From Escherichia coli (GTDB lineage Bacteria; Pseudomonadota; Gammaproteobacteria; Enterobacterales; Enterobacteriaceae), in NCBI RefSeq assembly GCF_003790525.1, contig NZ_CP033635.1: a DNA stretch of 64,000 bases; one strand, 5' to 3'. Of this stretch, positions 12,716 to 31,309 are shown in pieces (within the stretch, counting starts at the first letter, position 1; every line of letters starts with the position of its first letter). A program made the translations under genes and the position numbers. The notes beneath the pieces are model-generated. The model worked only from the letters and a program-made list of their open reading frames with translations. It was not told where the DNA came from and did no database searches.

Positions 12716-14497
12716 TTATTCATAGTGCATGAAACAGGTTTCAGTCGGTGCGTCCGCTGCGTTATCGGCGATATCTTCAAATTCCATGACGTTATCCAGT
12801 TCACTGCCCATCGAAATATTGGTCACACGCTCGAGAATAACTTCCACGACTACAGGTACCCGATATTGCGCTATTAAGACTTTCGCCTGTTCAAAGGCTG
12901 GTGCAATATCTTCCGGTTTGAAAACGCGAATTGCTTTACAACCTAAACCTTCCGCTACTTTTACGTGGTCGACGCCATAACCGTTCACTTCGCTGGAGTT
13001 AATATTTTCGAAAGCGAGCTGTACGCAGTAATCCATATCAAACGCGCGCTGCGACTGGCGAATCAGCCCCAGATAAGCGTTGTTCACCAGTACATGGATG
13101 TACGGAATATTGAACTGTGCGCCAACGGCTAATTCTTCAATCAGGAACTGGAAGTCGAAGTCACCGGAAATCGCCACCACATTGCGCTCTGGATCAGCGG
13201 CACACACGCCCAGCGCCGCCGGAATGGTCCAGCCCAACGGGCCTGCCTGCCCACAGTTGATCCAGTGGCGGTCTTTAAAGACATGCAGCATTTGTGCCGC
13301 AGCGATTTGTGACAGACCAATGGTGGTGACATAACAAACATCGCGACCAAAGGCTTTGTTCATCTCTTCATACACGCGCTGCGGTTTCACCGGCACATTG
13401 TCGAAGTGGGTTTTGCGCAGCAAAGTGCGTTTGCGCTGCTGGCAGTCGGCGACCCATTCTTTACGACACGGCAGACGACCCGCTTTTTGCATCTCCTGCG
13501 CCACTTCAACCAGCAGCGTCAGCGCTGCTTTAGCATCAGAGACAATGCCGAGATCCGGACACAGCACGCGGCCAATTTGCGTCGGCTCAATATCGATATG
13601 AACGATTTTGCGCCCTTCGGTGTATTTCTCTACCGAACCGGTATGACGGTTAGCAAAACGGTTACCGATACCAAACACCATGTCGGACGCCAGCAGCGTT
13701 GCGTTACCGTAACGATGCGCGGTTTGCAGACCCACCATCCCGGCCATCAGTTCATGATCGTCGGGAATACAGCCCCAGCCCATCAGCGTTGGGATCACCG
13801 GAACGCTGGTCAGTTCAGCAAACTGTTGTAACAGTGCAGCAGCGTCAGCATTGATTACCCCGCCCCCGGCAACAATCACCGGACGTTCGGCCTGAATTAA
13901 CATTTCTACAGCTTTTTCGATCTGCATACGGCTGGCAGCAGGTTTGTAGACCGGCAGCGGTTCGTACATGTCAGGATCAAACTCGATTTCCGCAACCTGA
14001 ACGTCGAACGGTAAATCCACCAGTACCGGACCCGGGCGACCAGAACGCATCAGGTGAAACGCCTGTTGCAGCACACGAGGCACCAGCGCCGCTTCACGAA
14101 CTGTAACCGCCATTTTGCTGACCGGTTTAGCAATTGCTTCAATATCAACGGCCTGGAAATCTTCTTTATGCAGACGGGCGCGCGGAACCTGGCCGGTAAT
14201 ACACAGAATAGGAATGGAATCAGCAGAAGCAGAATAGAGCGCGGTGATCATGTCCGTGCCCGCAGGACCGGAAGTCCCCAGACATACGCCGATATTCCCT
14301 GCCGTTGCGCGGGTATAACCTTCCGCCATGTGCGAAGCACCTTCCACATGACGCGCCAGAATGTGACGAATACCGCCGTGCTTACGCATCGCTGAGTAGA
14401 ACGGATTGATTGCAGCTCCCGGAACGCCGAAGGCGGTGATGATACCTTCTTTCTCCAGCACATACATTGCCGCGTCAACGGCTCTCATTTTTGCCAT
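12716..14497 (-). CDS. gcl: Glyoxylate carboligase (tartronate-semialdehyde synthase)
   Basis: ORF track 12716..14587 (623 aa) is an over-extension; start placed at [13 protein letters not shown] giving the ~593 aa ThDP enzyme. Confidence 0.9.
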
Positions 14498-14517
14498 TTT
14501 ATTCCTACCTCTATTAA

Positions 14518-14534
14518 TTGGAAAAATTTTCCAA
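14518..14534. promoter_or_regulatory. AllR operator palindrome in the gcl upstream region
   Basis: TTGGAAAAATTTTCCAA near-perfect palindrome read directly; matches the AllR operator as I recall it. Confidence 0.6.
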
Positions 14535-14586
14535 CTTTCAAATTTTGTCAAAAAAACCCGCTCCGCAGAGCGGGATGCGACAGACA

Positions 14587-15402
14587 CTATGGATGTGCTT
14601 TCAGTCCCAACGCCGTGCTGATATCGCGGGCGGTGTCTCTGACCAGCTCACCCTGACTGACAAAACGATCTTCTGTCAGTCTTGATGAAGGCCCGGAGAT
14701 GGAGATAGCGGCAACAACACTACCTACATCATCGTAAATTGCTGAAGCTATGCAATTCAGGCCAACAACATGCTCTTCTTTATCTACGGTATAGCCCAGT
14801 TCACGCGCTTGTTCCAGGTCCTTCAGCAAGGTGGGCATATCCACAAGCGTCGTTGGCGTAAACTGCTGCAAACCGGTTTGCAGAATGATGCTCATCAGCT
14901 CCTCTTCCGCCAGCGGATAAAGCAGCGCCTTGCCCGCACCGGAAGCATGCAGCGGCAGACGACTGCCCAGCGGCGCACACATCCTGACCATCGATTTACA
15001 CTCTAACTGACCAATTAATACCGCTTCATTGCCGTTACGGATCGCGACATTGACCGTTTCGCCGGAAAGTAACATCAGGCGGCGCATAAACGGCCCGGCG
15101 ACGGAGAGGACATCGCGGTTATGGATGTACGCTGCACCGACGTTAAAGACACCTAATCCTATATGCCACCAGCCTAACTGACTGTCCTGATAGACAAAAT
15201 CCGCTGCCTGTAAAACCTTCAGCAAGCGAAAGGTCGTGGAGAGCGGCAAATCCAGATTGAGAGAAATATCGCTAACCGATGAACTTCCCCCACTTTTTTC
15301 CAGATATTGCAGAATCGCAATTCCCCGCTCTAACGCCTGTGCGCCCTTCTGTGCCACAGGCTCCGCCTGTCCTGGCCTGCCGCGCCGTCTAACTTCCGTC
15401 AT
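14587..15402 (-). CDS. allR: IclR-family repressor of the allantoin regulon
   Basis: ORF track, 271 aa; recognised AllR. Confidence 0.9.
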
Positions 15403-15479
15403 ACCTACGTTAACTCCGACCTACAAGTGAGCATAAACAATGAACAATTCGTTTATCTTATGCAAGTCGGTTGCAGGCG

Positions 15480-15962
15480 TCACGCAAAACAGAGTTCCTG
15501 TTCAGGAATACTTTCAACATCACAGTTGTCACTGCCGCCGCGATCGATGGTCAAGAAATCGGTGACGCGCTGCCAGGCGAAAAGTGGATGATGCCAGACG
15601 TTACGATGGTAATTCACCCCCTGTTCGCCGTTGGTAATAAACGCCCGCAGAGTTGACAGGTCTGGTTTGTCGTCACCTAACGCCACGACCACCACAAACA
15701 CTTCCCCTTTCATCGGGATAAAGGCCTGAGTACCCAGCGGATGACGTTCGAGTTCGTGAAGGGTCAGCGGCAGATTCGCCGGTTGCGCGCGGTTAATGCT
15801 GATAAGCGTACGGTCTTGCTCAAGAATCTCAACCAGCGCCAAATCGTGGTAACGCTCCACCAGTCCATTGTTAATATGGAAAAAATCCCGTTGCTGCGTT
15901 TCGATTACGTCGCCATAAGCACTAAAGGCTTCCTGACTTAACGGTAATACCTGAAGTTTCAT
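15480..15962 (-). CDS. allA: Ureidoglycolate lyase
   Basis: ORF track, 160 aa; recognised AllA. Confidence 0.9.
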
Positions 15963-16067
15963 CTTTTTGTCCTTGTAACATAATTCCGTTCAACCACCGC
16001 CGACCGGTCAGCTTGGTTTCAATAACAGGCAATCTAAAACCTTAAGAGAACAACATCAACACAAAAG

Positions 16068-16084
16068 TTGGAATATTTTTCCAA
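16068..16084. promoter_or_regulatory. AllR operator palindrome in the allA-allS divergent intergenic region
   Basis: TTGGAATATTTTTCCAA, same half-sites as the gcl site. Confidence 0.55.
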
Positions 16085-16191
16085 AACTAGATTTAGTCCA
16101 CAAATTGAACAGGGTTATCATGTAAAAATACTGATAAATCAGAGGATAAGAAAATCACGCAACTTGCGGATTTAAAAGGGGATACCTGAAG

Positions 16192-17118
16192 ATGTTCGAT
16201 CCAGAAACCTTGCGGACTTTCATTGCGGTTGCTGAAACAGGTAGTTTTTCAAAAGCGGCAGAACGATTATGTAAAACCACGGCGACGATCAGTTATCGCA
16301 TTAAACTTCTGGAAGAGAATACCGGAGTAGCGCTGTTTTTCCGTACGACTCGTAGCGTAACGTTGACAGCGGCTGGCGAGCATCTACTTTCCCAGGCCAG
16401 AGACTGGCTGAGCTGGCTGGAAAGTATGCCAAGCGAGCTGCAACAGGTGAATGATGGCGTGGAACGCCAGGTGAATATTGTCATCAACAACCTGCTCTAT
16501 AACCCCCAGGCCGTTGCCCAGTTGCTGGCGTGGCTGAATGAGCGTTACCCCTTTACCCAGTTTCACATCTCCCGACAAATCTATATGGGCGTCTGGGACT
16601 CGCTATTGTACGAAGGTTTTTCGCTGGCTATCGGCGTCACGGGAACTGAGGCGCTGGCAAATACCTTTAGTCTTGATCCCTTAGGATCGGTGCAATGGCG
16701 CTTTGTCATGGCGGCGGATCATCCGCTGGCGAACGTTGAAGAGCCGCTAACAGAAGCGCAGTTGCGGCGCTTTCCGGCGGTCAATATTGAAGACAGCGCC
16801 CGCACACTAACCAAACGCGTCGCCTGGCGATTGCCGGGGCAAAAAGAGATTATTGTTCCCGATATGGAAACGAAAATCGCCGCCCATCTGGCGGGCGTTG
16901 GCATTGGTTTTTTGCCAAAATCACTTTGCCAGTCAATGATCGATAATCAACAACTGGTCAGCCGGGTAATCCCAACGATGCGCCCTCCTTCACCATTGAG
17001 TCTGGCATGGCGCAAATTTGGCAGCGGCAAAGCGATAGAAGATATTGTGACCTTGTTTACCCAGCGCAGGCCGGAAATCAGCGGATTTTTAGAAATTTTC
17101 GGCAACCCACGCAGTTAA
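16192..17118 (+). CDS. allS: LysR-family activator of allD
   Basis: ORF track, 308 aa; N-terminal HTH; recognised AllS. Confidence 0.88.
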
Positions 17119-30016: not shown

Positions 30017-31309
30017 TTATACGGTTTTATTGCGCTTCATGACCATTGCCACAATAAGGCTGAGTAAGATTGCGCCAATAATCCATATCAACGCACGGCT
30101 GCCCTGGGACCACAGGCTGTAGATAAAGCCAACGATCACCAACAACATCACCGACGTACCAACGATAAGAATCGGCAACGAGGCGTGAATATCATGACGC
30201 AGGCGGATCGCCACCACAAACACCGCCAGATAGCAGATCAAAAAGGTGGCGCTGGCAACGCTGGCGAGTGAGCCTAAATTCAGCGCCGCCGTCATCAGCA
30301 TAATCAGCACCACGACAATGATGTTGCCCCAGGTACTCTGCCGCCACAGGGATTTATTCATTAGCTTCGGCAGTTCGCGTTCGCTGCCCATGTTGTCCAT
30401 GATGTTAAACACGGCGAACAGGTTCGCGTTGATGGCTGAAGCCGTCGCCAGTAAAGCGCCGATGACGACGATCACATAACCCACATGCCCGAGCAGCGGA
30501 GAAGCAGCCTGCGCTACGGCGGTATCGGCATATTTTTCTAACTCTAATGCCGATACATCGCTAAGCAAAACCAGCGCCAGCGAGATATAAAGCAACGTGG
30601 TAACGCCAATCGCCACCAGAAACGCCCGTGGCATAATGATCTGCGGATCTTTCACTTTATCCGCCGCGTTCGCCATCATGCCAAAGCCCGCATAGGCAAG
30701 GAAGGTTATCCCAATACAGGAGAAGAACGCACCGGAGCTGGGGGGCGCAGAGACGGAAATATGTGCCGGTTGCAGCGACCAGACACCTGCAATGATCAGC
30801 AATAACAGGATCATCATTTTAATGCCGACGAGGATCACTTCCAGCCGCCCTACCGCATGGTTGCTTAAGGAGTTGAAAAGCGTCATCACCGCAATGATCC
30901 CCAACGCGTAGAGCAATATAAGGTGCTCCTCCTGACTGCCTTCATGCAAAAACTGCACGGCATAAGCGCCAAAAGCACGGGCGACCATGGCGATGCTCAC
31001 CGCCAGCGTCAACAGGTACAATAACGAGAGTGCCAGCGAAAAGACGCCGTTGCCTAATCCGCGACGAAAGAAGTCGATAATACCGCCATTGCTGGGATAG
31101 CTCGCCCCCAGGCGCGCATAGGCATAACCGGAAAACATCGCCACAATACCGCCAAAAGCAAAGGCGACCCAGGTCGAGGCTTCCATTAGCAACGCAGCCT
31201 GCCCCAGCAGCGCGAAGATCCCCGCCCCCACCATTGCCCCAATGCCGATGGAAACGACGTTCCATAGACCGAGGGGTTTGTTACCGTTATTACCTTCCGT
31301 GTTCATCAT
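30017..31309 (-). CDS. ybaT: Amino-acid permease (APC family)
   Basis: ORF track, 430 aa; recognised YbaT. Confidence 0.88.
   Translation of the reverse strand: MMNTEGNNGNKPLGLWNVVSIGIGAMVGAGIFALLGQAALLMEASTWVAFAFGGIVAMFSGYAYARLGASYPSNGGIIDFFRRGLGNGVFSLALSLLYLLTLAVSIAMVARAFGAYAVQFLHEGSQEEHLILLYALGIIAVMTLFNSLSNHAVGRLEVILVGIKMMILLLLIIAGVWSLQPAHISVSAPPSSGAFFSCIGITFLAYAGFGMMANAADKVKDPQIIMPRAFLVAIGVTTLLYISLALVLLSDVSALELEKYADTAVAQAASPLLGHVGYVIVVIGALLATASAINANLFAVFNIMDNMGSERELPKLMNKSLWRQSTWGNIIVVVLIMLMTAALNLGSLASVASATFLICYLAVFVVAIRLRHDIHASLPILIVGTSVMLLVIVGFIYSLWSQGSRALIWIIGAILLSLIVAMVMKRNKTV

Follow-up and report, generated by a model that had tools for sequence, protein, structure and literature searches.

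Background

Two near-identical 17-bp dyads lie in the intergenic regions on either side of allR, a repressor gene, in a 64-kb stretch of Escherichia coli DNA (the whole of which is called the window below), one just ahead of gcl and the other between the divergently transcribed genes allS and allA. An earlier note on this DNA, made from the letters alone, took them for the sites at which AllR represses the gcl operon and the allS/allA promoters, and proposed that repression at gcl works by occlusion of the promoter core or of the leader. The locus raises two questions: whether the dyads are the operators of the repressor encoded between them, and by what geometry a repressor bound at each of them would silence the neighboring promoters.

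Here we report that the two dyads are almost certainly operators of AllR. The regulatory biology around them is well established: such dyads are already known as the AllR operators of the E. coli allantoin regulon, and statements in the literature have AllR binding to the gcl promoter (gclP) and to the allS-allA region, with glyoxylate as the inducer and allantoin as the corepressor. AllR binding, its footprint and its release by glyoxylate are known to us via secondary citations of Rintoul 2002, Walker 2006 and Hasegawa 2008; in addition, AllR ChIP-seq combined with binding-energy models retrieves the known RegulonDB motif. The sequence, uniqueness, motif match and conservation of the dyads were computed in this analysis, binding and effectors are taken from the literature, and the promoter geometry is inferred.

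Results

Genetic setting of the dyads

The features of the locus are collected in Table 1. The 2.1 kb around the dyads are 100% identical to E. coli SMS-3-5 and were found in 5404 of 5426 complete E. coli genomes. The repressor itself is 100% identical to K-12 AllR. Both it and AllS clear the cut-offs of their NCBIfam equivalogs comfortably, AllR with 619 bits against 406 (NF007548) and AllS with 643 against 372 (NF007501). The true start of gcl is the ATG at 14497; a mechanical open reading frame that begins with GTG and reaches 14587 does not mark the real start. The spacer between allR and gcl is 89 bp long.

Table 1. Genes and regulatory elements of the allS-allA-allR-gcl locus, in window coordinates
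Feature	Position	Strand	Description and evidence
gcl	12716-14497	minus	Glyoxylate carboligase; heads the repressed gcl operon; RefSeq, ORF/translation check
gcl ribosome-binding region	14503-14511	minus	GAGGTAGGA; conserved
AllR operator of the gcl promoter	14518-14534	.	TTGGAAAAATTTTCCAA on the plus strand; TTGGAA-AAATT-TTCCAA
Putative gcl -35 hexamer	14546-14551	minus	TTGACA, 11 nt upstream of the operator
allR intrinsic terminator	14550-14574	minus	Hairpin 14574-14557, T-run 14556-14550; terminator scan
allR	14587-15402	minus	IclR-family repressor gene, between the two dyads; RefSeq, translation, NCBIfam
allA	15480-15962	minus	Ureidoglycolate lyase, repressed target; RefSeq, ORF/translation check
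Putative allA promoter	16031-16059	minus	-35 TTGATG (16059-16054), 17-nt spacer, -10 TAGATT (16036-16031)
AllR operator of the allS-allA divergent intergenic region	16068-16084	.	TTGGAATATTTTTCCAA on the plus strand
allS	16192-17118	plus	LysR-type activator of allDCE and allF, repressed target; RefSeq, NCBIfam

Sequence, spacing and uniqueness of the dyads

Both dyads were found where the earlier note had placed them, and only the one at gcl is a perfect palindrome, with two 8-bp arms about a single central base (8+1+8). In the allS-allA dyad seven of the eight arm positions pair and one inner position is non-complementary, the outer TTGGAA/TTCCAA arms being perfect. The gap between the gcl dyad and the A of the gcl ATG, which had been estimated at about 20 nt, measures exactly 20 nt. 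The other dyad is close to the midpoint of the 229-bp allS-allA region, with 105 nt separating it from the ATG of allA and 107 nt from that of allS.

Allowing up to three mismatches, a motif scan of the whole window returned the two dyad loci and a single 3-mismatch match at 30525, against a mean of 0.84 matches in shuffled sequence, so that the claim of only two copies held. With a weight matrix built from 40 orthologous AllR sites (described below), the gcl dyad scored 31.6 bits and the allS-allA dyad 31.2 bits; the next best score in the window, 10.5 bits, belonged again to the match at 30525, and the maximum obtained from local shuffles was 11.3 bits. We rejected this match (30525-30541, TCGGCATATTTTTCTAA) as an AllR site and ascribe it to chance, given a score within the shuffle range; it falls inside the ybaT coding sequence, provided that the window is collinear with SMS-3-5 that far. 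Within the two intergenic regions, the matrix scan revealed no weaker second AllR site of 8 bits or more.

Separately, an 18-bp perfect palindrome, CTGCAAACCGGTTTGCAG, was observed at 14866-14883 within allR itself, where it codes for the peptide LQTGLQ. It probably just follows from that peptide, and we treated it as chance.

Conservation across genera

Using the AllR protein as the query and one genome per species, we identified 23 loci, with the four genes allS, allA, allR and gcl identically ordered in 20 of them. These 20 loci cover about ten enterobacterial genera (Escherichia, Citrobacter, Klebsiella, Raoultella, Superficieibacter, Buttiauxella, Izhakiella, Atlantibacter and other Enterobacteriaceae) in addition to Providencia, and AllR identity among them falls to as little as 66%. 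In every one of them (20/20) the motif TTGGAA-N5-TTCCAA, at a threshold of one mismatch or fewer, occurs exactly twice per 7.8-kb locus, once 12-27 nt before the gcl ATG and once 92-106 nt before the allA ATG. Across the resulting 40 sites the arms are at least 96% conserved between genera, with diverged flanks and a freely varying central base. Of the inner positions, 8 and 10 carry A and T in 91% of the 40 sites.

One of the assemblies recovered in the scan, L009 (CACSKA010000001.1), is labelled Chryseobacterium sp. 18061, although its allS-allA-allR-gcl cluster is enterobacterial. In both gene coordinates and allS-allA dyad region it coincides with Citrobacter sp. 18056 (L021), and the assembly is likely to be mislabelled or contaminated.

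Agreement with published AllR operators

The AllR motif KTTGGAAWAWTWTTCCAAC, which Table 1 of Suvorova and Gelfand (PMC8222616) attributes to Rintoul 2002 (J Mol Biol 324:599), was compared with the dyads. Both match it at 17 of 17 core positions; over the whole motif the allS-allA site, read on the allA-direction strand, matches at 19 of 19 positions and the gcl site at 18 of 19. Furthermore, the 37-bp "AllR recognition site" of Rintoul 2002, in the form in which PMC13300388 quotes it, AAATCTAGTTTTGGAAAAATATTCCAACTTTTGTATT, corresponds to the K-12 allS-allA dyad plus its flanks, from which the window differs by one flanking base.

The known K-12 sites and those of the window share their loci, their genes and their dyad arms, and the allS-allA dyad is the same base for base. 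They differ at the central base of the gcl dyad, which is A in K-12 and T in the window when read in the gcl direction, and at one flanking base at each site; the symmetric arms are untouched. The difference within the gcl dyad is neutral with respect to symmetry, since palindromic recognition leaves the central base unconstrained. The comparison with published AllR sites, on which the earlier note had staked its reading, thus turned up neither a differing sequence nor a differing position, and the published motif, the quoted recognition site and the identities of the genes all agree with an assignment of the dyads to AllR at gcl and at allS/allA.

Comparison with IclR boxes

A competing assignment would make the dyads targets, exclusively or in addition, of IclR, the paralogous glyoxylate-sensing repressor. 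The resemblance behind this idea is considerable: the IclR consensus TGGAAATNATTTCCA shares 12 of its 14 specified positions with the core of the gcl dyad, TGGAAAAATTTTCCA, the equivalog model for IclR gives AllR a score of 248 bits, and both proteins respond to glyoxylate. The IclR box of the aceBAK promoter (TGGAAATNATTTCCA) is likewise an A/T-rich palindrome with TGGAA/TTCCA arms, read by an IclR-family paralogue with a glyoxylate response. The two mismatches, however, are precisely the dyad positions 8 and 10 that are so constant among AllR sites; at those two places T and A stand in the IclR box, and the full box with its inner T.A is found at neither site of the window, both of which have A.T. 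The aceBAK box also belongs to the glyoxylate-shunt regulon and to another regulator gene. The dyads co-occur with allR in every locus, and the literature assigns both sites to AllR. We therefore regard a role of IclR at these sites as very unlikely. In the window, positions 8 and 10 correspond to 14525 and 14527 at gcl and to 16075 and 16077 at allS-allA, and they are a candidate AllR/IclR discriminator, a pattern that looks like discrimination between the paralogues rather than sharing of sites.

The weakest reading, that the dyads are chance A/T-rich palindromes or mere promoter elements (a -10 hexamer, or UP-like A-tracts) with no repressor role, draws on the resemblance of the dyad center to a -10 hexamer and on the frequency of perfect 8-arm palindromes, which is about that expected by chance (3 observed, about 1.8 expected in 64 kb), but its probability is negligible, because fewer than one match to the specific 17-mer by far would be expected and two are present, because the dyad agrees with the published operator motif, because two dyads at fixed orthologous positions in 20 of 20 loci rule chance out, and because the G/C-containing arms TTGG/CCAA, needed by no promoter element, are conserved while their flanks diverge, which effectively refutes this reading. 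A lone perfect 8-arm palindrome is unremarkable in 64 kb; what carries the signal is the recurrence of one dyad in the two intergenic regions that flank allR.

Probable promoter architecture at gcl

With the dyads taken as AllR operators, we turn to the anatomy of the allR-gcl spacer. The hairpin and T-run of the allR terminator are kept, as judged by eye, in 19 of the 20 loci, and the T-run leads straight into a -35-like hexamer for gcl. In K-12 this terminator forms the 3' end of the sRNA AllZ (b4831) (allZ annotation; PMC8175672). The hexamer, too, is present in 19 of these loci; it precedes the dyad by 10-11 nt and reads TTGACA in E. coli and TTGGCN, TTGAAN or TTAGAC elsewhere. A 17-nt spacer from TTGACA would put the gcl -10 at 14528-14523 (AATTTT), inside the operator; across loci, a spacer of 16-17 nt places it on dyad positions 7-12 (WAWTWT). 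In a dyad-anchored matrix scan this arrangement was the best conserved sigma-70 one, with a modest mean score of 2.7 bits; the predicted -10 (AATTTT/AAATTT) is weak, and a consensus promoter scan did not call it.

Downstream of the dyad, a GAGG, AAGG or AGGA precedes the gcl ATG in all 20 loci, and in Providencia the distance from dyad to ATG is only 12 nt. Because the ribosome-binding site must be transcribed, and given the 12-nt gap in Providencia, the gcl start site should lie at or before the downstream edge of the dyad, or at most a few bases beyond it. This limit and the conserved -35-like hexamer together would therefore place the -10, the +1 or both inside the operator. Also, a stretch of 82 bp of K-12 DNA that begins at the stop codon of allR and extends to the ribosome-binding site serves as a working, inducible, AllR-controlled gclP in a published lux biosensor (PMC13300388), so the promoter lies within the same ~50 bp as the dyad.

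Taken as a whole, the comparative anatomy supports, by inference, the earlier proposal that AllR at gcl would occlude the core promoter. A gcl start site is found neither among the listed Cappable-seq plus-strand sites nor in the Kim 2012 tables, both from repressing conditions, as expected of a tightly repressed promoter. None of these genes is among the entries of the SMRT-Cappable-seq supplements.

Two other placements of the gcl promoter were considered and rejected. A hit from a simple sigma-70 scan overlaps the gcl ATG and is implausible. A promoter downstream of the dyad, consisting of TTGAAA, an 18-nt spacer and TAAATA/TTAATA, is unconserved (mean -1.4 bits) and would initiate inside or past the conserved ribosome-binding site.

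A strong Cappable-seq start site was noted inside allR, at 532856 (U00096.2), with a score of 410. It is the start of AllZ, and the only start site that Kim 2012 lists here is this AllZ start, mis-assigned to gcl.

The allS-allA region and its promoters

The putative allA promoter, TTGATG-17-TAGATT, scores 9.7 bits in K-12, with a median of 7.0 bits. Among the Cappable-seq plus-strand sites listed for K-12, the only one within 529667-531840 is at 531614 (U00096.2), with a low read count of 2.0. It corresponds to 532390 in U00096.3 (gene coordinates confirm the 776-nt offset) and to window position 16023, an A that lies 8 nt past TAGATT, where the sequence-based prediction had placed the allA start. 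With the start at 16023, the center of the dyad is at -53 and its span is -61 to -45, upstream of the -35 and outside the core promoter. The idea of repression by occlusion, when carried over to allA, accordingly finds no support in its simple core form from the only start site detected on the allA strand. That start was recorded in an uninduced culture with low reads and may not represent the AllR-controlled promoter, which may instead lie nearer the dyad.

The arrangement resembles the general bacterial one in which divergent promoters share an operator, in that a single AllR dyad, midway between the genes, is reported to control both allS and allA. It differs in that the center of this dyad, at -53 of the detected allA start, lies outside the -35/-10 core.

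An alignment of 15 allS-allA intergenic regions revealed conserved blocks besides the dyad. Those on the allA side are the TTGATG and TAGATT of the putative allA promoter; on the allS side, the operator is followed by two further non-coding blocks. The first is an invariant CCACA at 16098-16102 on the plus strand, adjoining the dyad. The second, at 16117-16141 on the plus strand, reads ATCATGTAAAAATACTGATAAATCA and includes a TG that never varies, at 16121-16122. This TG and the AAAAAT that follows could form an extended -10 (TGnAAAAAT) for allS, which would leave the dyad near -60; the block is possibly such an element, or else a site for some nitrogen or anaerobic regulator of allS.

Just upstream of allR, the allA-allR spacer contains two moderately strong Cappable-seq plus-strand start sites, at 532189 and 532207 (U00096.2), that is, 532965 and 532983 (U00096.3), or roughly 15430-15450 in the window. 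They are consistent with a promoter of allR's own, independent of the AllR dyads.

Discussion

The following model of AllR action is suggested by the architecture of the locus and by the reported properties of the protein. TTGGAA-N5-TTCCAA would consist of two half-sites, one for each helix-turn-helix domain of an AllR dimer, itself part of the tetramer. When glyoxylate is absent, AllR would occupy both dyads, with allantoin reported to strengthen the binding, and this occupancy would keep the gcl operon (gcl-hyi-glxR...glxK) off, together with the divergent pair allS and allA. Glyoxylate would lower the affinity of AllR for DNA, leading to derepression of the gcl operon, allS and allA.

The steps at the two dyads would not be the same. 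At gcl, the A/T-rich center of the dyad would itself serve as the -10, with transcription starting at about the downstream edge, and bound AllR would presumably exclude RNA polymerase. Between allS and allA, one central site would serve both promoters, and repression of allA would probably leave the -10 and -35 uncovered and act instead via the upstream contacts of RNA polymerase, or via the tetramer's second dimer; this is the least certain part of the model.

On this basis we tentatively suggest, as a possibility rather than an expectation, that AllR uses differing geometries at its two operators. The gcl operator would have its dyad center as the -10 and its -35 fused to the U-tract of the allR/AllZ terminator, a module conserved from Escherichia to Providencia in which AllR and sigma-70 compete. 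The allS-allA operator, near -53 for allA and roughly -60 for allS, would lie outside both cores and would act either by blocking the upstream contacts of RNA polymerase (UP-element/alpha-CTD) or through the second AllR dimer.

Conclusions

The sites described here are textbook elements of a well-studied E. coli regulon, present in RegulonDB and used in published biosensors, and identifying them in the window has little import beyond correct annotation. The check does establish that a reader given only the sequence was able to recognize real operators. What this analysis adds is the cross-genus footprint, with two dyads held at fixed positions in 20 loci, and the indication that the geometry of repression at allA and allS may not be simple core occlusion.
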